The notes beneath the pieces were generated by a model that did no database searches, had not been told where the DNA came from, and saw only the letters and a list, made by a program, of their open reading frames with translations. 64,000 nt of DNA. It comes from a virus. Positions 16,444-64,000 of the stretch are shown piece after piece. The first letter of the stretch is position 1, and the number at the start of each line of letters is the position of its first letter. The DNA lies in IMG/VR virus record IMGVR_UViG_3300045988_184153; one strand, 5' to 3'. A program made the translations under genes and the position numbers.

Positions 16444-16566
16444 AATAAATCCTTCCTTCTAACAGTTATAACTGTTTTTATTATTTCCTAAATTATAAAG
16501 AAATAAAAAAACGCCCGTTTGATAACGAGCAATTCAATTAATTTTTATTCAAAGTTAATGGGATTT

Positions 16567-19229: not shown

Positions 19230-19255
19230 AAAGGGACTAAATAGTCCTTTTTCTG
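19230..19255 (+). terminator. Rho-independent terminator
   Basis: AAGGGACTAAATAGTCCTTT hairpin followed by TTCT. Confidence 0.7.
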
Positions 19256-19256
19256 T

Positions 19257-19313
19257 TATAATTAAAGAAATTAAAATTATCTGAAATTATTTCAGTGGAA
19301 AGAAGGAAAAAAT
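19257..19313 (+). promoter_or_regulatory. Promoter/5'UTR cassette (TGTTATAATTAAAGAAA, CTGAAATTATTTCAG, GGAAAGAAGGAAAA)
   Basis: Direct reading. Extended -10 (TGnTATAAT). Confidence 0.7.
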
Positions 19314-25028: not shown

Positions 25029-25142
25029 TATTTTAAAATAAAAGATTATCACTAAACTTATTTAGTGATAATTTTTTTATAAAAAACTTATTTTTATTAA
25101 GCTATAATAGAGAGAGAAATAAAAAAAGGAATGGTATTTATC

Positions 25143-26963: not shown

Positions 26964-27092
26964 AAACTAACTTATAAGTTATAAAAAAGGTATCCAAATT
27001 GGATACCTTTTGGAATTTTTAAAATCACTAAGAATATCAAGATACGATAACCTATAATAGATAAAGAAATAAAAAAAGGATTGGTACTTATT

Positions 27093-30379: not shown

Positions 30380-30508
30380 TTTGTTCTCCTTCTTTCCCCT
30401 TCTAAAATTCATTTAGTTTTTATCTCTCTCTGAAATTATATCAGAATCTTCTTTTTCTTTTATAATTTGAGAAAGATATTTTATATTAAGAAAGAAGGTA
30501 TTATATTA

Positions 30509-31117
30509 ATGAAAAAATACAATCGTATTGCAATCGAGGGTGGGGAAGGCGTTGGTAAATCAACTGTCTTAAACATCCTCAAGAAAAATCTTGACCCAGA
30601 AACAACTCTATTTGTGAAAGAACCTTACGAGAAGTCCTCAGTCGCTGGTGACATCATTCGTTGGCGAAAAGGTGAGCTTGATTTGGATGAGATTGAACAG
30701 ACTGAACTTATGGCAAAATCCCGAGCAGAACTAAACAATCAGGTTGTTATTCCGGCAATCAACGAAGGGAAAATTGTTGTTTTTGATCGCTCCATTATCT
30801 CAAACTTGGTTTATCAATTGACGGGCACACATCTGACTCGTAATGAAATCATTGACATCAATTTGGAAGAAGATGAGAATATGGCACTTCCAGATTTGTG
30901 TGTGTTAATCGACGCTGATCCTCGTGCTGTACAAGATCGACTAAATCAAAACGGTCGTGAGCGTGACGCCATCGATTCGAAACCCTTGGAGTTTCATTAT
31001 CAAATTCGAGATGAGTTCTTGAATCTCTCAGAAGACTTCCCCTGCGATTTTCTAATCCTATCCGGATTTGACGATCCTGAAGTTAATGCAGAGAAGATTC
31101 TTGAATTGCTGAAATAA
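30509..31117 (+). CDS. P-loop nucleotide kinase, thymidylate kinase / deoxynucleoside kinase family (203 aa; start moved to ATG 30509 after the cassette SD)
   Basis: P-loop IAIEGGEGVGKST. DRS/DRY-type motif VVFDRSIISNLVYQLTG. These are family motifs of Tmk and dNK. I cannot assign it to one of the two. Confidence 0.65.
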   Translation: MKKYNRIAIEGGEGVGKSTVLNILKKNLDPETTLFVKEPYEKSSVAGDIIRWRKGELDLDEIEQTELMAKSRAELNNQVVIPAINEGKIVVFDRSIISNLVYQLTGTHLTRNEIIDINLEEDENMALPDLCVLIDADPRAVQDRLNQNGRERDAIDSKPLEFHYQIRDEFLNLSEDFPCDFLILSGFDDPEVNAEKILELLK

Positions 31118-31265: not shown

Positions 31266-32750
31266 TTGGACTTAGGTATTATTTTTTGGATTGTTGGGGG
31301 ATTAGTTGGATTCCTTGTGCTATTATCATTGTTTTACGCAGGGTACGTAATTGCGCCACCTAACCAAGCCGTTGTTATTACCGGTGGAGGTAAACAGCGA
31401 GTACTACTTGGTGAAGCAGGATGGATGATTCCATTTCTCTCTACACGAAATTACATCTCAGTAGAGCAATTCAAAACTGATGTAAAAACATCAAACTTTG
31501 TTCCTACGAAAGATTTCATCAACGTTAAAGCTGACGCAGCAGTAACTCTTAAGATCGGAACATCAAAAGAAATGCTTGCCGCAGCTGCTGAAAACTTCTT
31601 GAACTGGAATACGGAAGATATTTCTGCACAAGTAACAGACGTTCTTGAAGGTAATCTTCGTGAAATTATCGGCCAGATGAACTTGCGTGAAATGGTAAAT
31701 AACCGTCAAGAATTTGCTGGTAAAGTACAAGAAAATGTTAGTCCCGACCTTGCCAAGATGGGTATTGAAGTTATCGCCTTTACAGTTCAAAGTTTCGAAG
31801 ATCAAAACAACGTAATTCTAGACCTCGGTGTTGATAATATTGTTGCGATCAAGAAAGACGCTGCGATTGCACGTGCTATTGCAGAGCGTGAAGAAAAAGA
31901 AACTAAAGCTGAACAAGACCGTCTCGCTAATGAGGCACGTGTCACAGCTGACCTTGAAATTTCTAAACGTCAAAATGAACTAAAAATCAAGCAAGCAGAA
32001 CTTCAAGCGGTATCAGACGCAGAAATTGCTAAGAGTGCCGCAGTTCTTGAGATTGAAACAGAGCGCCAACGTAAAACTATCGAGTTCGAGCGTTCACAAG
32101 CTGATATCACGAAACAAGAACAAGAAGCGATTATCGCCCAAAAAGGCGTTGAAGTTCAACGTCAATATTTAGCTGCCGAAGTTGAAGCTGCTGCCGACGC
32201 AGAAAAATACAAACGTGAACGTGAAGCTGAAGCACAACTTGCACTTAGTCAACGTGAAGCTGAAGCTCAATTGTACCGTGTACAAAAAGAAGCTGAAGCT
32301 CAAGAACGCCGTGCTGAATCTAATCGCCGTCAAGCTGAAGAAGAAGCTAAAGGTATTGAAGCTAAAGGTCGTGCTGAAGCGGAAGCCATTCGTCTTCGTC
32401 TAGAAGCTGAAGCTGAAGGTTTAGAGAAGAAAGCAGAAGCCCTTGCTAAAATGGATCAGGCTGGTATTGCTCAAATGTACTTCGAGGTTCTTCCTCAAGT
32501 TGTTGCAGCGGCAACTCAACCACTTGCTAACGTTGATAGTATCACAATGTACGGAGAAGGTAACAACTCTAAGATGATTGGTGATATTATGACAAGTATC
32601 AGCACCATCAACGAAGGTTCTGGAATGGACATCCGACAACTTCTAAGTGGATTGGTTGGAGCCAACATCACTGGAAATGCGATTGGAAGACAAATCAAAT
32701 CTGCAACAGTTGAAGAAGTTCCAGCAACTCCTGAAGTTGTTTCAGAATAG
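31266..32750 (+). CDS. Flotillin-like SPFH/band-7 protein (FloT/YuaG-like), 494 aa, TTG start
   Basis: N-terminal membrane hairpin GIIFWIVGGLVGFLVLLSLFYAGYVIA. SPFH-like core. Long EA-rich coiled coil (AEAQLALSQREAEAQLYRVQKEAEAQERRAE...). TAGGAGGAG RBS. Terminator at 32759-32787. Confidence 0.75.
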   Translation: MDLGIIFWIVGGLVGFLVLLSLFYAGYVIAPPNQAVVITGGGKQRVLLGEAGWMIPFLSTRNYISVEQFKTDVKTSNFVPTKDFINVKADAAVTLKIGTSKEMLAAAAENFLNWNTEDISAQVTDVLEGNLREIIGQMNLREMVNNRQEFAGKVQENVSPDLAKMGIEVIAFTVQSFEDQNNVILDLGVDNIVAIKKDAAIARAIAEREEKETKAEQDRLANEARVTADLEISKRQNELKIKQAELQAVSDAEIAKSAAVLEIETERQRKTIEFERSQADITKQEQEAIIAQKGVEVQRQYLAAEVEAAADAEKYKREREAEAQLALSQREAEAQLYRVQKEAEAQERRAESNRRQAEEEAKGIEAKGRAEAEAIRLRLEAEAEGLEKKAEALAKMDQAGIAQMYFEVLPQVVAAATQPLANVDSITMYGEGNNSKMIGDIMTSISTINEGSGMDIRQLLSGLVGANITGNAIGRQIKSATVEEVPATPEVVSE

Positions 32751-34124: not shown

Positions 34125-35039
34125 TCAGACAAATACCACCATCGCCTTGTAGCAATCCGGTTTGTCCGGGAAGCGAACTAGCGACACCTCCTTGTTTGTA
34201 ATCCTTCGTGTGCTAAACTTGATATTTTCAAAGCTACTCTCATCTAAGTAAACGACGTAAAGTCGGTTACAGATATCACCCTTTTCAAGTCGGTAAACAT
34301 CTTGATTTTCAAATAGACTTTGTGCAAGTTTATTTGGATTTTTGCGTGCAGCCTTCACAGCCTCATCGTGCGATTCATAATCCTTTTCAAACATAGCTCC
34401 GAGGCTACGGGAAACCTTTTGGTCGTATGGTACGCCATCAACAAAATAGTCCAAACCAGCACTATGCTTCAGCGTTGGGAACACTTCCGAATTGTTTTTA
34501 AAAATCTCATACTCGATAAAATCATTTCGTAGTGCGTTGAAGTGTGTTACGCTAAGTTGATTAAGTGCCATATCCACTACTAGTTTCTCACGTGTTCGGC
34601 GAGAAATACAGTAACGGCGATTAATTTGCTGAATGGTTTGATCCAAGTTTCCTTGACGATTGGCCCAGAAATTATCCTGTTGCGATTCCAAACGATAATT
34701 TCGCTCTGCCGTTCGATACTGATTGTACTTGTCATACTTGTACTTGCCGTTGGGCAATACTGTCATCAGTTCATTTCGTGCGAACTGGAGTGCAATATTG
34801 TAGTCCCAATGTTCGATAATGATATCGTATGCTTTAGCTTTCGGAATCCGAAACAGACCCTTATTCTTTCCAGTTTTTAGTTTATAAGGTTCCTGATCGC
34901 CACCGGCAAGAATAAACAACTTTTCAGCCAAATCCTTTGCAGTTTCAGTTGTAAAAATCTTTTTAACCGTGTATCGATTGATTTCTTTCTTAATATTCTG
35001 GGACAGTTTCTTCTCTTCTGTTTTACTCATCAGAATCAC
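34125..35039 (-). CDS. Hypothetical protein (304 aa), overlaps the upstream primase-like gene by 17 nt (operon)
   Basis: ORF track. AAGAAGGGAAG RBS sits inside the end of the upstream gene. Confidence 0.6.
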   Translation of the reverse strand: MILMSKTEEKKLSQNIKKEINRYTVKKIFTTETAKDLAEKLFILAGGDQEPYKLKTGKNKGLFRIPKAKAYDIIIEHWDYNIALQFARNELMTVLPNGKYKYDKYNQYRTAERNYRLESQQDNFWANRQGNLDQTIQQINRRYCISRRTREKLVVDMALNQLSVTHFNALRNDFIEYEIFKNNSEVFPTLKHSAGLDYFVDGVPYDQKVSRSLGAMFEKDYESHDEAVKAARKNPNKLAQSLFENQDVYRLEKGDICNRLYVVYLDESSFENIKFSTRRITNKEVSLVRFPDKPDCYKAMVVFV

Positions 35040-36012
35040 TTCCCTTCTTAATCAATTTAAGCAAATCATTCCAATCTTTAACTGGTACAGTTCGTGAATC
35101 CGGTTTTTCTCTGATAGCTCCAGAAAAATGTTCCTTAAACAAATCATAAGCACCATTACCCGCTTCATCATTATCAGTTGCGATGATTAGCTGTAATTCT
35201 TTAAGATTCAAACCAAATCCAGTAGTTAGTTGTTCGATGATTCGTTCAACCTTTGTTAATGATCCACCGATTGCAACATACATAGTTTTAGATTCGGATT
35301 TTGGAATATTGTAAGGAATCTTATCTCGTACAGAATCAGAATAGCCGATTAGTTCCACATAGGATAATAGATCTATAACACCCTCGCAAAAGACAATCCG
35401 CTCTACATCTTTAAGAGAATTACAGTCCTTTCCAAGGATATAAAAGAACCCTTTAGATCCCGGCATATTTAATCGAATACGATTACCATCTTTGTCAGGA
35501 TGTGTCCCGATAACCTCAGCTCCGATACGATGTCCGTCCTTATCCAGTTGCAAAAAGACTAAGTTTCCAGAGGCGTTTTCTAAAATAAGTCCTCGTTTGA
35601 ATACAACATCTACCAACATCTCGTTTAGTTTACGTTCATCAATCAGATACTCCTTAGTTTGCCAAGCGTTCGGGTCATACACAATCTCGTCGAAGTTAGA
35701 ATCTTCTGCAATTTTCAGATCAACTTCTTTAAGTTTGTAAGACTTTCCGTTTGTCTTTCCGCCTAAGAAATTAAGCGCTGCTTTTTTGTCAACGATTCCC
35801 TGTTTCATCAAATAGGTCACAAGAGTATCGACCCCACGGCCACCTTCTTTTGTTGACCATCGGAACCAAGCGTCTTTGTATTCACCTTCAAGAGTGATTT
35901 GAAGTGAGTCGTGATCAACTAACTGAGCATTTCGTCCTTTCACAATATACGGAACTCCAAGGATGTCAAGTGCTGCTAGTGTTTTTGAAAATACTTTCTT
36001 TGTTTTTACCAT
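35023..36012 (-). CDS. Toprim-domain primase-like protein (DnaG/TraC-primase type), start moved to MVKTKK
   Basis: Toprim signatures IVFCEGVIDLLS (conserved Glu) and LIIATDNDEAGNGAY (DxD). Cassette TATAATTTTAGAAA, GAGTGTATACCGCACTC, AGAAAGAGGGAAGAAA-ATG on the minus strand. Confidence 0.65.
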   Translation of the reverse strand: MVKTKKVFSKTLAALDILGVPYIVKGRNAQLVDHDSLQITLEGEYKDAWFRWSTKEGGRGVDTLVTYLMKQGIVDKKAALNFLGGKTNGKSYKLKEVDLKIAEDSNFDEIVYDPNAWQTKEYLIDERKLNEMLVDVVFKRGLILENASGNLVFLQLDKDGHRIGAEVIGTHPDKDGNRIRLNMPGSKGFFYILGKDCNSLKDVERIVFCEGVIDLLSYVELIGYSDSVRDKIPYNIPKSESKTMYVAIGGSLTKVERIIEQLTTGFGLNLKELQLIIATDNDEAGNGAYDLFKEHFSGAIREKPDSRTVPVKDWNDLLKLIKKGSDSDE

Positions 36013-36072
36013 TTTCTTCCCTCTTTCTAGAGTGCGGTATACACTCAATATCAATATTTCTAAAATTATAGA
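36013..36072 (-). promoter_or_regulatory. Promoter/5'UTR cassette for the primase-like gene, back-to-back with the + cassette at 36090-36140
   Basis: Direct reading of the reverse complement. Confidence 0.6.
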
Positions 36073-39039: not shown

Positions 39040-39096
39040 TTTAATACCTTCTTTCTACTGAAATAAATTCAGATTTGTTATTTCTTAAATTATAAA
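39040..39096 (-). promoter_or_regulatory. Promoter/5'UTR cassette (minus strand) for 37744..39039
   Basis: Reverse complement reads TTATAATTTAAGAAATAACAAATCTGAATTTATTTCAGTAGAAAGAAGGTATTAAA-ATG. Confidence 0.65.
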
Positions 39097-39113
39097 AGCA
39101 AATCAAATTCTAT

Positions 39114-40914: not shown

Positions 40915-41019
40915 AAGGAAAGCCTTTTACTTTTTTTACTTCAAGGACGCATACTTTTGCTATTATAATTTAAGAAATAATAATTCTGAATTTAATTCAG
41001 TTAGAAAGAAGGAAAAATA

Positions 41020-42825: not shown

Positions 42826-42900
42826 GGGGGAATCATTCCTCCTCTTTTATAATTTAAGAAATTAAAAAATCTGAATTTATTTCAGTAGAAAGAGGGAAAA

Positions 42901-43431: not shown

Positions 43432-43542
43432 TAAAAAGGAGAGTTAAAGCTCTTCTTTTTTTATTAAAGATTTTATTCTCTAATCTGTTATAATTTAAGA
43501 GAATAAAAATAAAACTATTTAAATAGAAAGAAGGAAAATAAA

Positions 43543-48189: not shown

Positions 48190-48816
48190 ATGATTATCGA
48201 AAACCAAGAAAAGCGTCAAGCTGGTATTGTGGTGATTACTGGAATTTCGGGTTCTGGTAAGACAACTTTATCAAAAATTTTTGATGATGAACACACGTTG
48301 ATTTCGTATACCACACGATCCCCACGACCCGGGGAGGTAGACGGAGTTGATTATTATTTTCTTTCAGAAGCTCAAGCAAAAGAACTGTCTGAGTCCAACT
48401 CGGTTTTTGAGGAAACAAAATTCCAAGAAAATCTTTACGGTGTTACGAAAGATGAGGTTGTATCGAAGACCGATAATTTCACCAATCACGCTGTATTAGT
48501 TGCAGATACGAATTTCTACTCACACGTATTTCAAGATCAGGGTGATCTGTATTACGAGTATGGTGGTTTACGTGTGAAGGTATACCCTGTTATTTTGAAT
48601 CTACCTATTGATGTTGCTATCGAGCGTATCAAATCTCGTGGTGGAGACGAAGAACAAATCAACGGTCGTATCGAACGAGTTCAACTCGAACAGGAACGGG
48701 TATCAACCATTCAAGACTTGTTCTGCTTGCCAGTTTTCAACGTTCTTCCTGACGTGTCACTCGATGGCAACGTCGAACGATTTGTTGAATTTTTGGATGA
48801 AACGTACAATATCTAA
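48190..48816 (+). CDS. gmk: Guanylate kinase (Gmk-like), 208 aa
   Basis: GISGSGKTT P-loop. SYTTRSPRPGEVDGVDYYF signature. FEE..F.ENLYGVTK. Lid region RIKSRGGDEEQINGRIE. Strong SD AGAAAGAAGGGAGGTAA. Confidence 0.8.
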   Translation: MIIENQEKRQAGIVVITGISGSGKTTLSKIFDDEHTLISYTTRSPRPGEVDGVDYYFLSEAQAKELSESNSVFEETKFQENLYGVTKDEVVSKTDNFTNHAVLVADTNFYSHVFQDQGDLYYEYGGLRVKVYPVILNLPIDVAIERIKSRGGDEEQINGRIERVQLEQERVSTIQDLFCLPVFNVLPDVSLDGNVERFVEFLDETYNI

Positions 48817-48908
48817 AAAAGAAGAGTGAATATTTCACTCTTCTTTTATAATTTAAGAAAAAAATATTTTACTGAATTATTTTCAGTTAGAAAAGAAGGA
48901 AATTTATA

Positions 48909-50336
48909 ATGAAAAGAACTGATGAACCAACAAAGAGCCAATCTTTGGAAGGTAAGTTTTATTTAAAAGCAGTAGCTAAACTTTTATCTGAAAAACCGGA
49001 AGATATCTCAGTTATTGATTTGGGTGGATCTTTATTCAATTCTCGTGTTGCTTACTACGATGATAGCACAAAAACGATTTATTTAATCGAATCATCTGAT
49101 GGTGGAATCAATCTAATCAATATAAAGATGATGAAAGAAAAACTTGAAAAACCACTGAATATTTACAACCTAATACCTGTAACTGCTTCAGTGAAGATTC
49201 AACAAAATGAGGATGAATTTAAAAGATTACTGTTTAATTCTATCAGAAAAGATTTTGAAGATTCAACCTTATCTGATAATTTAAAAAAGGATGACTTTGT
49301 TCCTTTTGTAAAAAATTACCTAAAATCAATAAATATTAAAGGTGATGAGGGATACAAATCGATTTTGTTCTTATTGGAACTCGGATTGAAAGCAAAAGAT
49401 GTCCGAAAAAGTGAAAATTTTATGAAATACTTACAAAAAGTTACACTGGAACAATTTGGTTACTTAAAAGAAAATCCTTTGGATAATAGATTCTTCTTCC
49501 CATCTATCTTAATTTTGTTTGAGATTGACGATATTGTGAGTGGCAATTTACCAGACGAGGTAGTTAAGTTTGTTGAAAAATCTGGGATCAAAAAACTTGT
49601 GGAGAGTGATTGGTTTGGTATTGACATCCAACTAAACTTTATCTTGAAGGAGATGACACAGCTTGGATATTTGAAGAAGAAATATTTTTCTAATAATCCG
49701 GAACGTGTTATTTTAACAGAAAAAGCTACAAAGTACCTCAATACAGCTGAAAAATATGAGTTGATGGATTACAACTTTTTGAAAGAATCACCATTTTATC
49801 GCAGTGATATTTACACTTTTTTTAATAAGAAAGAAGAGTTACCGGATATTTTTTATAAATTCTTCAAAGAAGAAAAGAAAATTTTGGGGAAAAATCGTTG
49901 TATTAGATGTTGCGATTATTTCAGTAAAGAAAACAAATCCTTATCGCTCCTTGAATTACACAAGAAAAAGATTTTCAGTGTAACCTTTGATTATGAGGAA
50001 GGAAATCCACTAAACGAAAGCGGAGCTCTTTCTGAAGTATATCTTAAAGAAAATGTACTATCAAAACTTAAGGATAAAGGCGCTGTATTTTCGGACGTGT
50101 TAAAGAAATATTACGAGTTGATTTCTAACGAATACATTGACTTTTTCCTTTATAAGTATGATCAGAGTGATCTTCGTGATATGATTAATGGACTTATCGA
50201 GGAAGCCAAGTCTGACTTGCGAGAGGAATTAGAAAAAGAATTTTCTTTAGAACGTGAAGAATTTGAACGAATTATTGAAAATAAGAATGATGAGATTTTT
50301 TACTTGACTCAAGAAATTGATGATCTTCGAGATTAA
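48909..50336 (+). CDS. Hypothetical protein (475 aa)
   Basis: ORF track. Canonical cassette (ACTGAATTATTTTCAGT). Terminator at 50359-50381. Confidence 0.7.
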   Translation: MKRTDEPTKSQSLEGKFYLKAVAKLLSEKPEDISVIDLGGSLFNSRVAYYDDSTKTIYLIESSDGGINLINIKMMKEKLEKPLNIYNLIPVTASVKIQQNEDEFKRLLFNSIRKDFEDSTLSDNLKKDDFVPFVKNYLKSINIKGDEGYKSILFLLELGLKAKDVRKSENFMKYLQKVTLEQFGYLKENPLDNRFFFPSILILFEIDDIVSGNLPDEVVKFVEKSGIKKLVESDWFGIDIQLNFILKEMTQLGYLKKKYFSNNPERVILTEKATKYLNTAEKYELMDYNFLKESPFYRSDIYTFFNKKEELPDIFYKFFKEEKKILGKNRCIRCCDYFSKENKSLSLLELHKKKIFSVTFDYEEGNPLNESGALSEVYLKENVLSKLKDKGAVFSDVLKKYYELISNEYIDFFLYKYDQSDLRDMINGLIEEAKSDLREELEKEFSLEREEFERIIENKNDEIFYLTQEIDDLRD

Positions 50337-50358
50337 GCATAAAAGTAATAGCTTATAA

Positions 50359-50381
50359 AAAGAGGAATAAACCTCTTTTTA
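50359..50381 (+). terminator. Rho-independent terminator
   Basis: AAGAGGAATAAACCTCTT followed by TTTATTTTTTTT. Confidence 0.75.
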
Positions 50382-50475
50382 TTTTTTTTGCTTTAGTTTT
50401 TTTATTTCTATATATTTTACAAAATAAAATAAATCCAAACATTTATGTTTGGTCGAACAGAAGGATAAACAAAAA

Positions 50476-50508
50476 AACAATCCCTGGGTTAGGGGTTGTT
50501 TTTTTTGC
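50476..50508 (+). terminator. Hairpin plus T8 with loop CCTGGGTTAGG; upstream twin of 50985-51018
   Basis: AACAATCCCTGGGTTAGGGGTTGTT followed by TTTTTTTT. Confidence 0.65.
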
Positions 50509-50586
50509 GCTCTGTTTTATTAGATTCTATAATTATTACAAATAATAAAAAACACCTGATTCAATCAGGAAAGAAGGAGAAATAAA

Positions 50587-50952
50587 ATGAAAAAAACTAT
50601 AAAGCTTGGTCTAACTGACCGACACGCTGACGGAATGCCTGCCCTTGACGGGTACGTATTCCCATCAGTTATTAATGATGTAACTGATGTCAAAGCAATG
50701 GACAAGATGGCAGCTGAAGCTATCTTGCCATTACTCCAATTTAAAAAAGTTGCTAAGGAGGCCTTAGCAAACGCTGATATGGGCGACCAAGTCCTATGGC
50801 AATCTGATAAAGGGATTGACCTATACGTGACTGGGCTTACGTCCCTCACAGCTGCTGTTATCAAGTTGGCAGCTTACGAGGGTATTGCCCTAACTTTGTG
50901 GCACTTTGACCGTGCTACAAATACATACTTCCCACAAGTTATTTTTAAATAA
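50587..50952 (+). CDS. Hypothetical protein (121 aa) in a markedly GC-richer segment (about 43% GC against about 28% background); likely horizontally acquired
   Basis: ORF track. Cassette TATAATTATTACAAATAATAAAAAACACCTGATTCAATCAGGAAAGAAGGAG. Composition contrast visible by eye. The antisense ORF 50565..50864 was rejected. Confidence 0.6.
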   Translation: MKKTIKLGLTDRHADGMPALDGYVFPSVINDVTDVKAMDKMAAEAILPLLQFKKVAKEALANADMGDQVLWQSDKGIDLYVTGLTSLTAAVIKLAAYEGIALTLWHFDRATNTYFPQVIFK

Positions 50953-50984
50953 TTGTGGGGAGTATATCTTATCTTGCAAGATTA

Positions 50985-51018
50985 AAATCGACTCCTGGGT
51001 TAGGAGTTGATTTTTTTA
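50985..51018 (+). terminator. Hairpin plus T7 with loop CCTGGGTTAGG; downstream twin of 50476-50508
   Basis: AATCGACTCCTGGGTTAGGAGTTGATT followed by TTTTTTT. Also the palindrome ATCTTGCAAGAT at 50969-50980. Confidence 0.65.
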
Positions 51019-51063
51019 TATTTTAAAAACAAAAAAGGAGTTTTTAAAACCCCTTTTTCTTTA

Positions 51064-53058
51064 TTAAATCCAGTGAGAATATACATTCTCAATCAAATCC
51101 AGGTAAGCCTGTTTGTTGAGATTCTTTGGTAGTTCTTCTGGAAGTTTATCGTTATAGAGTGTAACTGGAGATTCAGGTACGTTTATTACCTTGTTAAGTT
51201 GACCAGTTTTCATATTATAACTCTGAACTCGTTCGCCAGATTCGGTTAGCAGGAATCGATTGATACGAGGTGCTAACTTCAAATTAAAAACAGTTCTAGT
51301 TTCTCGTTGCGCTTTTGATACAAATGCAAATTCTGAAACATTTCCAGATTTGATTTCTTTCTCTAACAAATCAAGCAACTCTTCCTCCGGATTCAAAAGT
51401 TTTTGTAGAATAACTTTATCAACAACCCGAGGTTTTGTTCCGAGTTTTTTGAGGTTTGAAAGTTGATGGTGAACTAGATCATCGCCTTTAGCCTCAACCA
51501 AGACACCATCGTTTACTAGGATACGATCATTATCTGATTTTGCAATATACAAGTCAATCATTTCAGATCCAATCTTCATACCCCAGAACTCTTCCCATTC
51601 ACGAACAACACTTGTGATATCTTTCTCAGAAGTCCAAAACACACCATCTGTGTTAGCACTCCAAACTTCACCACCTGCACGCAGGATACGTGTCACTAGG
51701 TTAAATAGAAGAATTTGAAGGATGATACGTCCTTGAATCATACCGATTGGGTTGTAGATTGGTGTTCCGTTACGGTCTGCATTTCCGGTAGGTTCGTTAG
51801 TTGCTAATTTGCTTGACTCAACACCTTCATTAATTACAGTCACGAGATCTGAAATTGTTTTAACAGATTCTTCGATATCGATACCAAAATCTTTAATCTG
51901 CTCTTTTAGCTCAAACAAATCCAGGAATCCTTCGCTATTCGCTTTATCGATAAGTTTCTTTGCTTTTTTGTAGGCAAACTTATCCTCTTTGTATCCACGA
52001 TAAATTCCGGCGATTTCAGGACTGAAGATGTCCTTCGCTAGAATAATTTCAGTATAAGCGCCTTCCACGTCATCGTGATGAACATTTTTCTTACGGACAC
52101 AAACGGTGTCTAGTCGTTTAGTATGTAAGCCACCACCGGAAGATGAAATTTCCAATTTATTATCAATTGTAAATTTATAGCTTGGGAAAGAAACTTCTTT
52201 GAAAACCTTTTCAGCTTCGAAAATGTGTCCACCTGAAGCAATAATTTCCAAGTATTTATCCATCGCAGCTTCCATCTCAGCTTGATAACGCTTCAACTCT
52301 TCCTTCCAGCCGTCAGGAATAAAATCCAATACGTTGCGACCATTAAATTGCCAGTCAAACTTCTTATCCTTGTGGTTTTTGAATTGTCCGTTGCGTGTGA
52401 TACCTTCAGTTGCTAATTGAGCTCCAGTTTTAGAAAATAGGTGTTCTTTTCCATCAAGGTATCGGTCAATCATTGCAAGATGTTGTTTGTAACCCGCTGT
52501 AATATAAGGATGTTTAAATACAACCTTCATATTTGAAGAACGGTTCATTGAATAAAGAACAACTTTTAAAAGTTTTTCTTCGTTCAACTTTTTCTTTGTC
52601 TTCAAATATACATCAGGTTCAGAAATTGATAACCCCATACGACCAGCAACCTCCTCTAGGGTTGTGCCTTGTTGTAATAAGTTTGCAATATCAAAGAAAC
52701 CGTATGTTTGTTTTGGAGCCGGTGTTAGTTTCCAAGGTTTTACACGTTTAACAGTGAGTTGATTGTGCAACCAATCAATATCACTTTGATTTTTTCCTTG
52801 AGAAACAAGTGGCAAAATGTAAGAATCTAGGAACTTACCATTCCAGAAAACTACACGTTTGTTGTACAGGTAATTGTACAAGGCTTTGGAGTCTAAATAT
52901 TTAGCTCCGTTCTTGTAAATCTCCGCTTGTTTAATTTTTCCACCAATTACAGACACGTACTTCTCATCTGAATCAAGTTCAGAAAATGTTGTGACTGTAT
53001 GATGTTTCAGTAGAATGATATCTACAAAAATAATTGGTTTGTTAATGTCTTTAGCCAT
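51064..53058 (-). CDS. Divergent family-B-like DNA polymerase / nucleotidyltransferase candidate (664 aa)
   Basis: My tentative motif reading, in PolB order: Exo II-like FWNGKFLDSYIL; motif A-like HDDVEGAYTEII; motif B-like KLIDKANSEGF; motif C-like SANTDGVFW. Canonical Exo I DxE is absent (FVDIIL). Motif C has N in place of the first D. The assignment is weak. Confidence 0.35.
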   Translation of the reverse strand: MAKDINKPIIFVDIILLKHHTVTTFSELDSDEKYVSVIGGKIKQAEIYKNGAKYLDSKALYNYLYNKRVVFWNGKFLDSYILPLVSQGKNQSDIDWLHNQLTVKRVKPWKLTPAPKQTYGFFDIANLLQQGTTLEEVAGRMGLSISEPDVYLKTKKKLNEEKLLKVVLYSMNRSSNMKVVFKHPYITAGYKQHLAMIDRYLDGKEHLFSKTGAQLATEGITRNGQFKNHKDKKFDWQFNGRNVLDFIPDGWKEELKRYQAEMEAAMDKYLEIIASGGHIFEAEKVFKEVSFPSYKFTIDNKLEISSSGGGLHTKRLDTVCVRKKNVHHDDVEGAYTEIILAKDIFSPEIAGIYRGYKEDKFAYKKAKKLIDKANSEGFLDLFELKEQIKDFGIDIEESVKTISDLVTVINEGVESSKLATNEPTGNADRNGTPIYNPIGMIQGRIILQILLFNLVTRILRAGGEVWSANTDGVFWTSEKDITSVVREWEEFWGMKIGSEMIDLYIAKSDNDRILVNDGVLVEAKGDDLVHHQLSNLKKLGTKPRVVDKVILQKLLNPEEELLDLLEKEIKSGNVSEFAFVSKAQRETRTVFNLKLAPRINRFLLTESGERVQSYNMKTGQLNKVINVPESPVTLYNDKLPEELPKNLNKQAYLDLIENVYSHWI

Positions 53059-53154
53059 AATAGCTACCTTCTTTCTATCTCTAGCTTTGCTAGGAATTTT
53101 TTATTAAATTATAAGAAAAATAAAAAGAATAGAGGCATAACTCTCTATTCTTTT

Positions 53155-54198
53155 TTAAAAAGGAAGAATACTATCCATTTCTTCTAATATTTCAGAAACA
53201 ATCTGAATAACCCTATTTTTTTGTTCAGGATCGCATTTTAATTGAAACATATTTATTAATTTCAGCATTGAATCATTGTCTAACAATCCAGATTTTAATT
53301 CTTCATCACTTATAAGCCAAATCGGTTGGCTACCAGATAGAAAATCTTTAAATTCAAAGCGATCATCAGAAAGTAAAATTTTTTTGTAAAATTCTTCAAA
53401 ATCTTCCTTTGCTTTTTGAGCATAATATTTTAAAATATTTTCATAACCTTCACCACGAGGATCGATTAACATCTGGATTAAATTTTTATTCATCCAACTT
53501 GTTGAAAAATCCTTGGTTGATAGTTTTATATTATGCTGACCAACTTTAGAAGAATCTCTTGTATGATAAAGTGATAGTTTACTATCTGAATCAATATAAA
53601 ATTCTATTTTGTTAGAACCTAAATTTGAGTCTAAATCCAATTGATTAAAAATTGATAATTTTTTTGTGAGGTATTGTGAAATTCTCTTGATAGTTTCTTC
53701 TCTATCAAGTTCAACACTAGGCTTTCTGGTATTAATAAGGTTATTAAAAATATACGCCGTTTCAACCTCAAGTTTCCTAATATTTTTTGTTAAAAACAGA
53801 TACATTTTTTTGTTAATATCCTGTGGAACTCCTGTAATATTTAATTTCGTGATTTCCAATAGATATCTATGTTCTCTACCAAATTTACCACCAGGTTTGA
53901 AATTTGTTTTTGAATCAAAAAATCTATAATCAATATCAAAAACTAAATTTTCGAGTATCTCGTCGTGTTGAATGATGAGGTGAGGATTGTTTGCGAACAA
54001 ACGAATATCTCTATTATTACTATTAGTTTTAAATTTCGACTTAATTTCGCACAAAACTTTTTTTATTAGTAAATTAAATTTTGCGTCCTCTCTTAAACTT
54101 TCAATAAATTCAGTTATATCAGATTTTGCTAGATTTTTTGCAGCATTCATCAAATTAATAATTTGATTATTGTTTTCTTCTTTTGTTTTTACTACCAT
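53155..54198 (-). CDS. Hypothetical protein, about 320-aa paralog family member (347 aa), starts MVVKTKEE
   Basis: Family blocks NRDIRLFANNPHLIIQHDEILENLVFDIDY and C-terminal DPEQKNRVIQIVSEILEEM. Cassette on the minus strand. Confidence 0.7.
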   Translation of the reverse strand: MVVKTKEENNNQIINLMNAAKNLAKSDITEFIESLREDAKFNLLIKKVLCEIKSKFKTNSNNRDIRLFANNPHLIIQHDEILENLVFDIDYRFFDSKTNFKPGGKFGREHRYLLEITKLNITGVPQDINKKMYLFLTKNIRKLEVETAYIFNNLINTRKPSVELDREETIKRISQYLTKKLSIFNQLDLDSNLGSNKIEFYIDSDSKLSLYHTRDSSKVGQHNIKLSTKDFSTSWMNKNLIQMLIDPRGEGYENILKYYAQKAKEDFEEFYKKILLSDDRFEFKDFLSGSQPIWLISDEELKSGLLDNDSMLKLINMFQLKCDPEQKNRVIQIVSEILEEMDSILPF

Positions 54199-54266: not shown

Positions 54267-55286
54267 CTACTCTTGTAATAATCTGGATACAGCCTCCGCA
54301 AATCTTTTTCTCTGTTCAGGATCCTTTTCGTACTGGATTAGAGATTTCAAATGATCGAATGCGCCATATTTTTTGATTTCATCCTCTAACTTTCCTTCAC
54401 TTAAAATTCCAAGTCCGTACTGTCCATTTTTAACATTATTAAGGGTGAAATTATTCCCCTCTAATAATAATTTTGACAAGTAGTTTTTGGCCTCTTGTTT
54501 GATTATCTTAGCGTAATAGATAACGATATCGTCATAAGAATCTCCATACCTGTCGTCCAACATTTTAATATAGGATGTTCTTAAAAACAATGAACTTCTT
54601 AAAGACAAAGATAAATCTATATATCCGAAAAATGTATTCTCTGGTGTGTGGGATTCGGTGACATTTCCTAAATTTCCATCGCTATCAACAAACAAGATGA
54701 AGGCGTTTGATATTGCTTCGTTTCCAATTAATATCTTTAAAGATGACAACTCTGTTTTGATACTTTTAGATACGAACGAAATGACGTCATCATTGGTTAT
54801 ATCTTTATCCGGCTCATCACCGAATGGATTGTTATTAATATCTATTTTCTTTATAATAGAAACTTTTTTCTTTGCCATTTCAATCCGTTTTTCAAGAGAT
54901 AAATTCATTTTCTTATTGATGTTTGATGGAATATTACCCACTAAAAGATTTTTGACCAAAATTGTTTCGTAAGTATCATTACTCCAGGGAGATGATATAA
55001 TAGAATACGGTCCGTCTTCAAAGTCACAAGAAAATTCAAGGTTATCCACAATATTTTCATATTCTAGAATAAGATGATGATTATTCGCCAATAAACGAAC
55101 ATCCCTATTTCTTGAATTTGTTTTTAAAGATGAACGTAAGTATTTCAAAATATCATCAATGGCATTATTAAACAACTCGTGATCAAGTAAATCTTCGTAA
55201 ATTTCCTCAACAGTCTTATTGGCAAGATTCTTCATCCTATTAACCAAATTGATAAAGTTCGTTTCATCTTTGGTAGTCTTTACCAT
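54267..55286 (-). CDS. Hypothetical protein, about 320-aa family member (339 aa), starts MVKTTKDE
   Basis: NRDVRLLANNHHLILEYENIVDNLEF and C-terminal DPEQRKRFAEAVSRLLQE. Cassette at 55287-55343. Confidence 0.7.
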   Translation of the reverse strand: MVKTTKDETNFINLVNRMKNLANKTVEEIYEDLLDHELFNNAIDDILKYLRSSLKTNSRNRDVRLLANNHHLILEYENIVDNLEFSCDFEDGPYSIISSPWSNDTYETILVKNLLVGNIPSNINKKMNLSLEKRIEMAKKKVSIIKKIDINNNPFGDEPDKDITNDDVISFVSKSIKTELSSLKILIGNEAISNAFILFVDSDGNLGNVTESHTPENTFFGYIDLSLSLRSSLFLRTSYIKMLDDRYGDSYDDIVIYYAKIIKQEAKNYLSKLLLEGNNFTLNNVKNGQYGLGILSEGKLEDEIKKYGAFDHLKSLIQYEKDPEQRKRFAEAVSRLLQE

Positions 55287-55343: not shown

Positions 55344-55597
55344 GAACTGACCGACATTGATGTGGTACAAGAATTATGAAATATTGTCTACTCCGTAATT
55401 CAAGATTTTTTTTCGTCCGTGACCACAATGACTATTTCATCTTGAAGCAGATGAATATTCTAATTTCATTATCTTATCTGTTTCACCACAGAGGAATTGC
55501 AACATCAAAGACGATGAAAAGTTATTTTAATTTGAATTTCCACACAGAGCCAGACGTCAATCACTTGGTCTTATTCTGGTTAAGTGGAAATACTATG

Positions 55598-56950
55598 TTA
55601 TTTTATTTTATCTGTTAAAGACATACCTCTTCGAGCAATAACATAAGAGGCTCCTGAATGTATGTTTAATTTCATTTTAGGACAATATTTTTGTTTTGCA
55701 ATCCAACTAGTCCAAGCAGGATTAACCTTATGTAAGAAGATTTTATTTTTAACGCATTTAGAAGTTATGATAGAATCAAATTTAGAGTAAGCGAGAGATG
55801 ATAACATCTCATTATACTTCATACCCTTTTTACTAATTAAGTCATCTTTCTTTTTGTTAAAATTAAGTTTTTCTATAACTAAATCTTTTCCGGATTTTAA
55901 ACAATAATCTTTTAATTTAGTTGCTATATATTGAAAATCGATTATTGTTTGATTGCCTTTGCCATATTTATAATATATATTAAAATTATTTATTAGATTA
56001 CCATATTTATCGGTTTCACTAACTGAAACAAAACCCTTGTTAAAATCAACCCCCACCACACCATAACTATTTCTAGTAATACATAAATCCTTATTATGTT
56101 TAAAGTTGTACATAATTTGAAGAAATACTCTATTGTCTTTAATCTTAATTCTATAAGTTAAGGCACTTTCTTTTGTTTTAAGTAGATTCTTCAATAAATT
56201 AGTATAACTTTTATTATTGAAATAAAATTTTCCGTAAACAAATTTGTCATTTTCTAAGTCAATTTCTTTTCTAATTTTAAAATAGAATTGATTTGTTTTC
56301 GAACTGTATTTAACTTGAAAATTGTTATTACAGGTAATATCACCAGATCTACCTATAAAATAGATTTCGCTATCTCGCCTCTTAACAAATTCTTTATAAT
56401 CTTTTTGTAATAATTTTTTAGTTCCAAAACAAACTTTATATTTACCTGTTTTAATTTCATTTAAAATATTGTTTAGCTTTTGTTTCTTAGTATTTAACCT
56501 GTTTTGTTTCCAGTAAATTTTAATTTTTAGATTTTTATATTTAGTAGAATTGAAAGCGCTAGGATTGTTTTTTAAATCGATTCTTTGTAGAGCTCTTTCA
56601 TCTTTTAATTTAATAATCTCTTTTTCAAGATTGTGTATTTTTCTTTCTAAACTCTTTCTTTCAAAATTTTTTAATTCTTTAATAGATTCATATCGACCAA
56701 ACATATTACTCAATATTGCGTCTACCGCTCTACTTGTCAGGTTAAACTCCTCTTTTAATTGAGCGTGAATAATATTTTTATCCTTTTGAGTGACCCTACC
56801 GCTCTTTATATAATAATTTTTAATTCTATGGAAGGTTAATCGTTGAATTTTATTGAACAGTTCAATGTAATCAGAAATGTATTTTCCAACCAACTGATTG
56901 TATTCCCTATTTATTTTTAATTCAGTTGTTATCGTAAATACATTACTCAT
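55598..56950 (-). CDS. TnpB-like protein (450 aa) with degenerate zinc finger and His in place of the RuvC-III Asp; possibly nuclease-impaired
   Basis: RuvC-I-like GVVGVDFNKG. RuvC-II-like DLVIEKLNF. DPAYTSQ-like VNPAWTSWIAKQKYCPKM, with only one Cys where the CxxC...CxxC finger should be. C-terminal NIHSGASYVIARRG aligns to nADxNAAxNIarrG with D replaced by H. Long coiled-coil insertion in the N-terminal half. Own TAAGGAG RBS, not the standard cassette. Confidence 0.6.
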   Translation of the reverse strand: MSNVFTITTELKINREYNQLVGKYISDYIELFNKIQRLTFHRIKNYYIKSGRVTQKDKNIIHAQLKEEFNLTSRAVDAILSNMFGRYESIKELKNFERKSLERKIHNLEKEIIKLKDERALQRIDLKNNPSAFNSTKYKNLKIKIYWKQNRLNTKKQKLNNILNEIKTGKYKVCFGTKKLLQKDYKEFVKRRDSEIYFIGRSGDITCNNNFQVKYSSKTNQFYFKIRKEIDLENDKFVYGKFYFNNKSYTNLLKNLLKTKESALTYRIKIKDNRVFLQIMYNFKHNKDLCITRNSYGVVGVDFNKGFVSVSETDKYGNLINNFNIYYKYGKGNQTIIDFQYIATKLKDYCLKSGKDLVIEKLNFNKKKDDLISKKGMKYNEMLSSLAYSKFDSIITSKCVKNKIFLHKVNPAWTSWIAKQKYCPKMKLNIHSGASYVIARRGMSLTDKIK

Positions 56951-57169
56951 TATTTAATAACTCCTTATTCCTTTTTTATCTAAAACATAACTATATCTTT
57001 CAAAAGATATAATACATTTGTTATCACATTTTTTGACTGCTTGATAAAAACTTAAAATGAATCAACAAATTTATTGATTGTATAATGGTTTTATTTATAT
57101 TCTTTTTTTTGTAAAAAATATTTTCCCTTTTATATCATATTATAAATAAATAATATAAAAAAGTCAAAT

Positions 57170-57214
57170 AAACTATGTAGAATAATTTAAATACATAATC
57201 ATTCTACATAGTTT
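57170..57214. terminator. Perfect 14-bp-arm palindrome (AAACTATGTAGAAT ... ATTCTACATAGTTT) with flanking T-runs; terminator of 57260..58219 within a 310-bp AT-rich non-coding region
   Basis: Direct reading. Confidence 0.6.
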
Positions 57215-57259
57215 ATTTATATTTATTTTTCGGTCTGTTAAAAACTTAAATTGATATAG

Positions 57260-58219
57260 CTATTCTAGCAATAATTCTGTAATAATGTCAGCGAAACGCT
57301 TCTTGTTTTCTTTTGATTCGTTATACAAAAGTTCTTTAATAGCACAAAAACTATTATTGTAACGCAATTCGCTTTTTATTTTTTTATCAGTGAAATAATC
57401 TAGTGAGGCTGTTCTAGCCTCCAAATCTTTAAAGGAAAAGATATCCTCTTCAATTAAAAATTTTGCACTTAATTCTAGAGCCTTTTTTCTAATTTTATCA
57501 CAGTAATCTTTTAATAAAAACTTTTCATCTTCATCGTCAATAAATGATTTTAAAAATAACTTATTATCTCGAGATAAAAAATTGGTTTTATCGTTAATGC
57601 CAATTTTCAAGTTTAACAAATCAATAAGATGATTTTTAAAGCTAAGAGATAATTTTTTATTTTTATCAAGATAAACAGTGGTTGTTTTGAGACGGTGGTG
57701 TGACGATTTTTCAGAATGATAGATGTGGTTAGCAAAGGATAATTTTTCTTTCAAATACTTAGATAAAGAAGTTGCAACTTTATCTTCAGATTTGCATTTT
57801 GAGTCAACACGAAATGAAACTGTAAAGTATTCCCAACTAGATCCATTAGAAATTTTCTTAACTTTAGTATTAATTTTATCCTTAAATTCTTTCTTGATTT
57901 TTTCTGGAAATATTACAGAAACATACTTACCAACCTCAAAAGTATTGCTTGAGTTTTCGACGATATTAAAATCAAATTTTAAATCCTTAACCGCCTTCTC
58001 ATACTCAAAGATTAATTCCGGATTTTCCGCAAACATCTTTGCAAAATCATCAGTGTAATTCAATCGTGCGTACAAATCAGCAAATTCATCATAGATTTCT
58101 TTTACAATTTTAGCCTCACCTATTTTGGATAAAATATCCTCATCACTCATTTTTGCAATATTCTTAAGCGACAAAGATAGTTCTAAAACTTCATTATTAT
58201 TATTTTTCGAACTTTTCAT
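57260..58219 (-). CDS. Hypothetical protein, about 320-aa family member (319 aa)
   Basis: ENPELIFEYEKAVKDLKFDF block and C-terminal ENKKRFADIITELLLE. GAAAGAAGGTG SD. In an operon with 58249..58554. Confidence 0.65.
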   Translation of the reverse strand: MKSSKNNNNEVLELSLSLKNIAKMSDEDILSKIGEAKIVKEIYDEFADLYARLNYTDDFAKMFAENPELIFEYEKAVKDLKFDFNIVENSSNTFEVGKYVSVIFPEKIKKEFKDKINTKVKKISNGSSWEYFTVSFRVDSKCKSEDKVATSLSKYLKEKLSFANHIYHSEKSSHHRLKTTTVYLDKNKKLSLSFKNHLIDLLNLKIGINDKTNFLSRDNKLFLKSFIDDEDEKFLLKDYCDKIRKKALELSAKFLIEEDIFSFKDLEARTASLDYFTDKKIKSELRYNNSFCAIKELLYNESKENKKRFADIITELLLE

Positions 58220-62936: not shown

Positions 62937-64000
62937 TTACAGACGCTCTTTAATCAAACTAACACGTTCTAAGTTTGAAATATCAGTTAATGATTCATTA
63001 AGAGTTTCGACTTGACCAATGATAACATTTACTTCCCTTGTCCTTGTGTATCCGGTGTAAACAAGCGATCTGTTCAAAGTTCTTCGTTGTGTTTTATCCA
63101 CAATCTGAATAACGACCTTAGCTTCACTTCCTTGAGACTTGTGGCAAGTTATTGCGTATGCAATGTTGATATCGTAAATACTGTACCCTGAATACTCAAC
63201 AACCCGATTTTCATCGACAGTATCGCCCTCAAACGTTACCTCCAAAACCTTTTTCCCATCATCTCTAATAATAATGTCAGTCACGATTCCGGTTTCTCCG
63301 TTAAAGACTAAATTGTCATAGTCGTTCACCATTTGAATAATTGGATCACCAACATAAAATGCAGAATTGTCTTCCTTGCGAATAATAACCGGCTCATCTT
63401 CTGGATGTTCAAACGTTCTCTGGATCTCTCGATTGATATTTAAGGTTCCCAACTCACCTTTCTTTTGGGCAGACAGGATTAAAATATCGCTATGGTCGAA
63501 TCCTAGCTTTAAAAATCGCTTATAGGATTTAATGAGTGCGTCGATCCCCTCTTGAGTGTTTTGTGTATTGATAAAATAAGAGTCCGAAATTCCACCGTCA
63601 CTTCTCTTTTCGTTGAAAACAAGCCCGTTTTGGTTTTCTTTGTTATAACCAACACCAGATTTCATAAGATGTGCGTTACTAACCAATCTCGATCCGTCAG
63701 CTTGACGAAAAACTTTATTTAAAATTACAGTTTCTACCTTTTTAGATTCAATCAAATCTCTTAAAATCAAACCCGCACCAACAGAAGGCAATTGGTTCTC
63801 GTCGCCAACAAGTAAAAGGTTTGAATTTGGTGACAATGCACTTAAAAGTTGAGAGAATAGGTAAACGTCAATCATTGAGGATTCATCCACAATAACAAAA
63901 TGCTCCTCAATCTTCTTAACATTTTCCTCTCGACCAAAACCCTGAAGATGTAGTTTTCGGTGGATAGTAGAAGCAGGAAATCCCAGAACTTCTGCAAGGC
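62937..64000 (-). CDS. recD2: RecD2-type SF1B DNA helicase, C-terminal portion (the gene continues beyond the window end; the ORF-track Met is internal)
   Basis: The frame stays open to position 64000. Translation there reads LAEVLGFPASTIHRKLHLQGFGREENVKKIEEHFVIVDESSMIDVY, the RecD2 motif Ia/II region. Then LLLVGDENQLPSVGAG, ITCHKSQGSEAKVVI, VYTGYTRTRE (motifs III, V, VI). Confidence 0.8.
   Translation of the reverse strand, partial: LAEVLGFPASTIHRKLHLQGFGREENVKKIEEHFVIVDESSMIDVYLFSQLLSALSPNSNLLLVGDENQLPSVGAGLILRDLIESKKVETVILNKVFRQADGSRLVSNAHLMKSGVGYNKENQNGLVFNEKRSDGGISDSYFINTQNTQEGIDALIKSYKRFLKLGFDHSDILILSAQKKGELGTLNINREIQRTFEHPEDEPVIIRKEDNSAFYVGDPIIQMVNDYDNLVFNGETGIVTDIIIRDDGKKVLEVTFEGDTVDENRVVEYSGYSIYDINIAYAITCHKSQGSEAKVVIQIVDKTQRRTLNRSLVYTGYTRTREVNVIIGQVETLNESLTDISNLERVSLIKERL

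Follow-up and report, generated by a model that had tools for sequence, protein, structure and literature searches.

The 64,000-nucleotide stretch of DNA considered here (virus record IMGVR_UViG_3300045988_184153; "the window" throughout) carries on its minus strand an open reading frame (ORF) of 664 amino acids (aa), starting with ATG and extending over 51064..53058. Judging from profile homology, predicted fold and aligned motifs, its product is a genuine, divergent family-B DNA polymerase (PolB) of a subgroup in which motif C reads N-T-D-G. Very probably, it is an active, primer-dependent enzyme deficient in proofreading, and it would represent a conserved core replication or repair gene of the Inocles, a family of giant extrachromosomal elements found in oral Streptococcus (Kiguchi et al., 2025, Nat Commun 16:7397; PMC12340149). 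Both the polymerase group and the Inocle family were already known; what is new is a conserved NTDG PolB on Inocle-type elements, together with the decay of its exonuclease site throughout the clade.

Homology, fold and polymerase motifs

The protein matched the PHROGs family phrog_1252, annotated as "DNA polymerase", over aa 6-660 (E 2.5e-38), and a tblastn search against phage genomes returned weak C-terminal matches to annotated polymerases of Leuconostoc and crAss-like phages. A large protein database contained 85 relatives, 78 of them at least 94% identical and the other seven diverged members of the same clade (84-45% identity; P0079-P0085). When a profile of this clade (A1) was searched exhaustively against 1.84 billion representatives, 704 relatives were found at E<=1e-3, including 123 at E<=1e-10; this number, together with the PHROG 1252 match, excludes a chance motif match. 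A wider family profile (A2) was made from a 60-sequence sample of the 704 relatives, among which 18 reach Pfam DNA_pol_B (PF00136) and seven reach DNA_pol_B_2. Compared with the PDB, the A2 profile matched 132 solved PolBs, the best being S. solfataricus PolB1 (1s5j, E 1.1e-18), with KOD, Tgo, 9°N, Pfu, Pol epsilon and poxvirus polymerases also among the matches, and motifs A, B, C and KxY could be aligned residue by residue to those of the solved enzymes. A word-indexed search with the same profile brought back nearly only the close clade, plus one new protein (P0234).

The AlphaFold2 (AF2) model of the protein, built on the A2 alignment, has a predicted local distance difference test (pLDDT) score of 95.8 and a predicted template modelling (pTM) score of 0.92; its top-50 Foldseek matches in the PDB are all PolBs, with which it shares the exonuclease and palm/fingers/thumb fold. 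Among viral models, full-length matches with template modelling (TM) scores of 0.7-0.83 were obtained to phage DNA polymerases of ~600-670 aa (Lactococcus P087, crAss-like, Enterococcus), and a 611-aa phage protein in BFVD scored 0.77-0.83. A hidden Markov model (HMM) of the family recovered, both over their full length and both with NTDG, the polymerases of Leuconostoc phage 1-A4 (YP_009168335.1, Mccleskeyvirinae; E 2e-144) and of the crAss-like phage cr52_1 (gp46, YP_010112118.1; E 2e-102). The polymerase of Lactococcus phage P087 belongs to the same family and also carries NTDG; the hosts of these Leuconostoc and Lactococcus phages are likewise Firmicutes/Lactobacillales, and the Leuconostoc phage polymerases share 21-23% identity with the protein over the C-terminal 250 aa (tblastn). 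Profile and fold comparisons thus return polymerase homology and no other fold, bearing out the central proposal of the original prediction, a divergent PolB with its motifs in family-B order. The sole PDB match obtained with the protein sequence itself or with the clade-only profile, the designed "CAP repeat" protein 8vd6, covers aa 116-150 (window ~52609-52713, minus strand), where the exonuclease-fold domain has a stretch resembling a helix-turn-helix (GFFDIANLLQQGTTLEEVAGRMGLSISE), and was discarded as a probably spurious match of low information.

The polymerase motifs (listed with their coordinates in the table below) are strongly conserved. In 140 family representatives, each of at least 450 aa, aligned to the family HMM, N-T-D occurs without exception (NTDG in 138, NTDA in two), as do the Asp of motif A and the Lys of motif B, and the Tyr of motif A is found in 133. 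D330, K417, G425, N469, T470, D471 and G472 are invariant columns in all 60 A2 sequences, and so are G309, G310 and H312 of the family-specific GGxH motif; within the clade, D330, Y335, K417, N421, G425 and D471 remain invariant down to 45% identity. Motif B (SKLATNEPTG; S416-K417-LAT-N421-EPT-G425) keeps a K-x3-N-x3-G spacing that is invariant in the clade, T424 standing in the query subfamily where the canonical enzymes have Tyr, and the strand equivalent to KxY aligns to the family "QKDVNNYI" and to the KKxY of archaeal PolBs. Accordingly, two placements of the original prediction stand, namely motif A at DVEGAYTEII (aa 330-339), aligned to DxxSLYPS, and motif C at SANTDGV (aa 467-473), aligned to YGDTDS; its motif B (K..DKANSEGF, aa ~367-378) falls instead in a variable stretch of a fingers helix, the true motif being K417-LATN-EPTG425. 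It had also read NTD for DTD in motif C as an apparent substitution. The canonical YxDTDS with its two aspartates is indeed replaced by N469-T-D471, so that the reading itself is real, yet it is not peculiar to this protein: N-T-D is the normal state of the whole group, to which the polymerases that replicate Leuconostoc and crAss-like phages belong, and N469 therefore does not speak for a dead enzyme, which corrects the misreading of NTD as evidence of inactivation. The MotifC and KxY of the crAss-like and HelPrimPolB groups have been described as profoundly different from those of other PolBs (PMC7544198), and primer-independent PolBs (piPolBs) that lack the first MotifC Asp are reported to polymerise efficiently all the same (PMC7544198, PMC5695915); besides piPolBs, further groups can dispense with the second aspartate of the canonical pair as well.

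In the mechanism that we propose, D330 of motif A and D471, the second acidic position of motif C, would act as the metal ligands of a two-metal mechanism, the incoming dNTP would be bound by K417 and N421 of motif B and by a basic fingers helix, and Y335 would serve as the sugar gate. N469 would occupy the position of the dispensable first Asp, as in every relative.

One of the closest published counterparts is the crAss-like PolB group (Kazlauskas et al., 2020, NAR 48:10142), with which the NTDG group may be equated on the strength of the cr52_1 and crAssphage matches. Both are compact enzymes (~640 aa) starting directly at Exo I, with GGxH, a motif A of the DxxSxYP type, a motif B of the form K-x3-N-x3-G and NTDG in motif C. 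Unlike the crAss-like phage enzymes, whose DEDDy site is intact (YDIEVF, NNxxYD, YNIxD), the protein of the window has a decayed exonuclease site, falls into a subfamily of its own (motif A D[IV]xGAY[GT], motif B KLxTNxPTG and KxDNxR rather than KDVNNY) and resides on a plasmid-like carrier rather than a phage. The Leuconostoc phage enzyme also differs in being exonuclease-intact and in lying, together with PrimPol and a helicase, within a ~28-kb siphovirus replication module. Fusions to ERF recombinase, Prim-Pol, D5-type helicase or C5-methylase domains occur elsewhere in the family; a HelPrimPolB architecture was considered for the ~1000-aa relatives nearest to the query subfamily and rejected, no domains being recognised in them by Pfam.

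The original prediction had also contemplated a protein-primed (phi29-like, pPolB) or primer-independent enzyme. Compactness without a long N-terminal domain, carriage by a mobile element and a motif C without its first Asp would suit such an enzyme, and the piPolB of pipolins is likewise a mobile-element PolB with no first motif C Asp and a non-canonical KxY (Redrejo-Rodriguez et al., 2017, PMC5695915). Nonetheless, this identity is extremely improbable: the KH-X8-KTRG motif of piPolBs is missing, with KSDNDR at the position of KxY, the 44 residues between motifs B and C are predicted to form a single helix (aa 437-460) that leaves no place for a TPR2 hairpin, TPR1 is equally absent, the phi29 match is weak and the exonucleases of piPolBs are active (PMC5695915). 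Moreover, Inocles are described as circular, with ori/ter GC-skew patterns (PMC12340149), and the window itself codes for a Toprim primase.

Decay of the exonuclease site and selection on the gene

The family consensus comprises the full DEDDy set (Exo I YDIEVF, Exo II NNxxYDD, Exo III YCxxD), and 123 of the 140 representatives keep all its catalytic residues. In the clade of the window protein, the Glu of Exo I and the Asp of Exo III are absent from all eight members, and the more distant lineages (P0081-P0085) have lost the Asp of Exo I and that of Exo II as well. The nearest outgroups in a neighbour-joining tree (P0086-P0089, 30-35% identity) retain every exonuclease residue, so the loss is derived; in other parts of the family, at least three further losses of catalytic residues of the site have occurred independently (P0090, P0116/P0126, P0145). 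The original prediction had correctly recognised that the Exo I DxE is missing (D13 is kept, and the position of the Glu is I15), that WNGKFLD (aa 72-78) is Exo II-like, as its alignment to the family NNxxYDD confirms, and that exonuclease catalytic residues are substituted; the replacement of the Exo III Asp by R173 had escaped it.

Mutagenesis of Klenow, T4/RB69 and phi29 polymerases has established that proofreading is abolished once either the Glu of Exo I or the Asp of Exo III is removed. With two of the four catalytic carboxylates lost here, and all four in sister lineages, the enzyme would be unable to proofread by itself. The domain has been kept as a folded module under purifying selection despite its decayed site: compared with a 96%-identical allele, the ratio of non-synonymous to synonymous substitution rates (dN/dS) is 0.044 for the whole gene, 0.053 for the exonuclease-like domain and 0.032 for palm and fingers, from 135.5 synonymous and 28.5 non-synonymous differences (dS 0.42). 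Pol alpha, Pol zeta and archaeal PolB2 similarly combine a retained exonuclease fold, lost exonuclease residues and an active polymerase site, and work beside a main polymerase, as may likewise be the case here with DnaE; they differ in sharing 10-12% identity only and in having metal-binding modules at the C-terminus besides a large N-terminal domain, and the loss described here arose independently and recently within a PolB family of phage type. It offers a natural case of exonuclease-site decay in such a family, which can be compared with an exonuclease-proficient sister lying in the same gene context.

Since both the exonuclease site and the first Asp of motif C are missing, the protein might be regarded as a dead, polymerase-derived scaffold, comparable to the C-terminal half of Pol epsilon, and a loss of catalysis had been among the options of the original prediction; the replacement of two more canonical Tyr and the missing Pfam match could be added in its favor. 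We consider this very unlikely, given that N-T-D is universal in a family serving as phage replicase, that the catalytic residues D330, Y335, K417, N421, G425 and D471 do not vary within the clade, that palm and fingers have the lowest dN/dS of the gene and that piPolBs without the first Asp are highly active (PMC5695915).

Several points nevertheless weigh against an active PolB. Neither Pfam nor NCBIfam gives an above-threshold match for the 664-aa protein, the clade-only profile matched no polymerase in the PDB, and the link to PolBs runs via the wider family profile and a structure predicted from the same alignment. Two further positions (motif B Tyr to T424, KxY Tyr to R512) depart from canonical PolBs. 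We know of no member of the NTDG group that has been characterised biochemically, and activity is suggested by conservation and by phage genomes in which this enzyme is the sole DNA polymerase.

Carrier element, conserved module and possible roles

The window has a GC content of 0.32, contains TnpB copies and encodes flotillin, a DUF3991-Toprim primase, two nucleotide kinases, RecD2 and surface proteins with SSSPR-51, MucBP and G5 domains; a near-identical PolB is carried by contigs of up to 349-383 kb. A phage replicon was considered and rejected, as there was no INPHARED megablast match, no clade member in IMG/VR and no PHROG structural match among the neighbors, in a conjugative or plasmid-like context. 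Almost no neighbor gene in the window matched PHROGs at all, and PLSDB plasmids and GTDB representative genomes gave no match.

The size (~245-368 kb), ~32% GC, richness in insertion sequences (IS) and absence from public genome, plasmid and phage collections fit the profile of Inocles, Inocle-alpha having a mean length of 368 kb (as against 349-383 kb for the contigs mentioned above), ~32% GC and many IS (PMC12340149). A RecD-like helicase, cell-wall surface proteins, the regulatory cassette described below and, in a sister lineage, an InoC-like gene are also shared. The Inocle marker InoC is a ~454-aa protein with a Replic_Relax domain (PF13814; PMC12340149), and on a 306-kb contig of the sister lineage L006 the orthologous PolB has a 456-aa PF13814 gene at a distance of 8 kb. 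The Inocle_004 forward primer was found on three metagenome contigs (267 kb, 338 kb and 14 kb) with the reverse primer ~225 bp off, and the primer-bearing contigs (L010, L012) share with the window, in the promoter/5'-untranslated region (5'-UTR) cassette only, 80-86% identity at ~10 sites. It is highly likely that the window is Inocle-family DNA, probably alpha; the assignment is indirect, no InoC gene and neither of the Inocle_004 primers being present within the 64 kb.

Inocles are reported to encode Pol III alpha (in all of them), exonuclease, gyrase, RecD, RecJ and DinG, their annotated genes being enriched in DNA-damage functions, and that report, in which 95% of the genes are given as function-unknown, mentions no family-B polymerase (PMC12340149). 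Standard annotation, that is, Pfam, NCBIfam and the Prokka-based pipeline of the same report, misses this PolB.

PolB belongs to a conserved module that also includes the RecD2-like helicase and nucleotide kinases, and in relatives it is accompanied by a DnaE-type Pol III alpha. The orthologous PolB of L006 adjoins a topoisomerase IA with DUF3945, an RNase_T/DnaQ-family exonuclease (380 aa, L006:14861-16003, plus strand, 3 kb from the exonuclease-dead PolB) and thymidylate and guanylate kinases, the same contig also encoding the 456-aa Replic_Relax protein and a TraG-like coupling protein. Apart from the two kinases (44-53%) and SSSPR proteins, PolB (47%) is the sole gene recognisably shared between window and L006, which makes it a core gene. 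L016, an 88-kb contig, carries the exonuclease-proficient P0089 (31% identity) with G5 proteins, a guanylate kinase and a 784-aa RecD-like helicase beside PolB, and TnpB; the same PolB-guanylate kinase-RecD context around an exonuclease-proficient enzyme indicates that the arrangement predates the loss of the exonuclease site. A counterpart of RecD2 is found in L003 as well (791 aa). Some 10 kb from its PolB, L016 also encodes a 1209-aa DnaE-type Pol III alpha (L016:21979-22043 onward, minus strand); these elements carry two polymerases, PolB and a DnaE-type one. The L006 exonuclease is a candidate trans proofreader, the L016 DnaE a candidate partner polymerase and the DUF3991-Toprim protein a candidate primase partner of PolB; inside the window, no homologue of either the RNase_T exonuclease or DnaE was found.

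On these grounds two roles appear about equally likely, each at somewhat less than an even chance. PolB may be the main replicase, derived from a phage-type module, with fidelity supplied in trans by the DnaQ/RNase_T exonuclease and host mismatch repair and with DnaE as a Firmicutes-style primer extender. The Leuconostoc/crAss-like homologue is an annotated DNA polymerase adjoining primase and helicase genes, and PolB is a core gene at 45-55% identity across element lineages otherwise sharing almost nothing, evolves at a dN/dS of 0.044 and is syntenic with a RecD helicase and dNMP kinases, with the RNase_T exonuclease nearby in L006 and the DUF3991-Toprim primase in the window. However, it is unusual for a replicon of ~370 kb to have a replicase that has lost its own proofreading, neither a clamp nor a clamp-loader gene turned up in the vicinity, the window contains no counterpart of the RNase_T gene and Pol III alpha is also element-encoded (L016; PMC12340149). 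The co-resident DnaE could indeed be the real replicase and PolB an accessory enzyme, a point against the former role; with the same likelihood, below an even chance, PolB would then be an exonuclease-minus repair, translesion or gap-filling enzyme (cf. Pol zeta, archaeal PolB2, exonuclease-minus Pol II) in an element replicated by DnaE and host PolC. The clade-wide loss of the exonuclease site, the DnaE-type Pol III alpha of the related element, reported for all Inocles, and their enrichment in DNA-damage functions (PMC12340149) agree with this role, as does archaeal B2, a translesion enzyme with one MotifC Asp and a degenerate exonuclease domain (PMC7544198). Against it, the module shared with the exonuclease-proficient L016 sister is older than the loss, no SOS/LexA-type regulation is evident (the cassette looks constitutive, as in neighboring genes) and the ancestry of the family is replicative.

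To our knowledge, a replicative-type DNA polymerase of their own is hardly ever found in circular plasmids or plasmid-like elements, and the PolBs of the self-synthesising elements that we know of (pipolins, casposons, polintons, linear plasmids) are protein-primed or primer-independent. Here a highly prevalent human oral element family carries a conserved PolB of the RNA/DNA-primed type, and the gene provides a handle on Inocle replication or DNA-damage tolerance. That Inocles are "self-synthesising" replicons, with a ~370-kb circle copied by their own phage-derived PolB without proofreading and with DnaE, RecD2 and the Toprim primase, is a speculative and rather unlikely extension; if true, such a low-fidelity replicase could help explain the divergence of Inocle strains (PolB dS 0.42; 88.9% average nucleotide identity within taxa, PMC12340149).

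Transcription unit and other features of the window

Flanked by terminators and preceded by its own promoter, the PolB gene is a monocistronic, self-contained transcription unit. The same order of terminator, TTATAATTTAAGAAA, small hairpin and AGAAAGAAGG recurs upstream of ~20 of the 47 larger genes of the window, in agreement with the original description of a standard cassette, and this stereotyped layout indicates that most such genes are monocistronic. The cassette consists of a T-run terminator hairpin, (C/T)TTATAATTTAAGAAA without an obvious -35 box, a 5'-UTR hairpin (often CTGAATTTATTTCAG), tAGAAAGAAGG and then ATG, as exemplified at 13853-13918, 19242-19309, 39046-39107, 40956-41015, 42843-42899, 43484-43537, 48841-48910 and 53059-53155. 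Also as first described, PolB lies in the same strand block as the RecD2 and tnpB-like genes.

Features of the PolB gene, its transcription unit and its surroundings (window positions unless a contig is named; SD, Shine-Dalgarno sequence)
Feature	Position	Strand	Remarks
PolB gene	51064..53058	-	Family-B DNA polymerase, "NTDG" (crAss-like / Leuconostoc-phage) group, 664 aa
DEDD-exonuclease-fold domain, aa ~1-230	52369..53058	-	N-terminal, decayed active site
Exo I remnant FVDIILL, aa 11-17	53008..53028	-	D13 kept, Glu replaced by I15; aligned to family YDIEVF
Exo II WNGKFLDSYIL, aa 72-82	52813..52845	-	N73 and D78 present; lost in sister lineages
Exo III remnant YSMNR, aa 165-176	52531..52566	-	Y169 kept, catalytic Asp replaced by R173; aligned to family YCxxD
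GGxH motif SGGGLH, aa 307-312	52123..52140	-	Family-specific, shortly before motif A
Motif A HHDDVEGAYTEIIL, aa 327-340	52039..52080	-	Putative catalytic D330, steric-gate Y335; aligns to DFASLYPS (Sso PolB1, KOD)
Motif B ESSKLATNEPTGNADR, aa 414-429	51772..51819	-	K417, N421, G425; aligns to KxxxNSxYG
Motif C EVWSANTDGVFW, aa 464-475	51634..51669	-	N469-T470-D471-G472; aligns to YGDTDS
KxY equivalent LYIAKSDNDRI, aa 503-513	51520..51552	-	K507 kept, Tyr replaced by R512
Thumb domain, aa ~531-664	51067..51468	-	AF2 secondary structure; tblastn alignment to Leuconostoc and crAss-like phage polymerases
PolB promoter/5'-UTR cassette	53059..53121	-	Read from sequence
TATAAT box of PolB gene	53108-53113	-	
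5'-UTR hairpin of PolB gene	53080-53094	-	
SD AGAAAGAAGG of PolB gene	53067-53076	-	
Terminator of gene upstream of PolB	53122-53155		Hairpin and T-run
PolB intrinsic terminator	51031..51059	-	Directly 3' of stop codon
Guanylate-kinase-like gene	48190..48816	+	PHROG 1815; syntenic with PolB in three diverged lineages
RecD2-like SF1 helicase	62937-63890	-	Feature extends over 62937..64000 and is cut by window end; Pfam SH3_13, AAA_30, UvrD_C_2; syntenic with PolB in related elements
Thymidylate-kinase-like gene	30467-31117	+	53% identical to L006 counterpart
Flotillin/SPFH protein	31266-32750	+	
DUF3991 + Toprim protein	35023-36054	-	Primase type common on Gram-positive conjugative elements
tnpB-like ORF	55598-56950	-	450 aa; TIGR01766 31.3 bits vs cut-off 32; NF040570 E 2e-7
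Window paralog array	53155-54198, 54267-55286, 57260-58219	-	347/339/319 aa
L006 paralog array	12114-12887, 12968-13696, 16026-16763		257/242/245 aa
L008 paralog array	11180-12037, 12087-12938, 12975-13982		285/283/335 aa

The coding orientation switches from plus to minus at ~50340-51063, close to the maximum of the cumulative GC skew (~50-51 kb), and convergent terminators stand beside the 3' end of PolB (50984-51014, plus; 51031-51059, minus). The ~51-kb site could be a replication terminus of the kind described for Inocles; at 1-kb resolution the skew tracks the local coding strand, which leaves the signal ambiguous and perhaps due to convergent transcription only.

In each of three diverged lineages, PolB is flanked by two or three function-unknown paralogs, and between lineages neither BLASTP nor hhalign detects homology of these arrays. 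Their interpretation as accessory subunits, such as a clamp, found no support: they have no Pfam, PHROGs or NCBIfam match, and the AF2 model of the 347-aa member is poor (pLDDT 59), helix-rich and not clamp-like.

The surface and secreted proteins form a cluster on the plus strand (6308-9127, 20977-22878, 23034-25028, 25131-26963 and 27081-28919), with SSSPR-51, MucBP, G5 and weak VWA domains typical of streptococcal/lactobacillales adhesins, the 610-aa and 612-aa genes being close paralogs. The 3' end of the DUF3991-Toprim ORF overlaps the start of the next ORF (34125-35039, minus) by 17 nucleotides. Finally, the divergent tnpB-like ORF lies within a 1.86-kb insertion (55367-57229) that interrupts the collinearity of the window with the sister contig L003, where it is missing; L003 in turn has TnpB insertions at two sites that are empty in the window, and these reciprocal differences show the TnpB elements to be actively polymorphic between strains.

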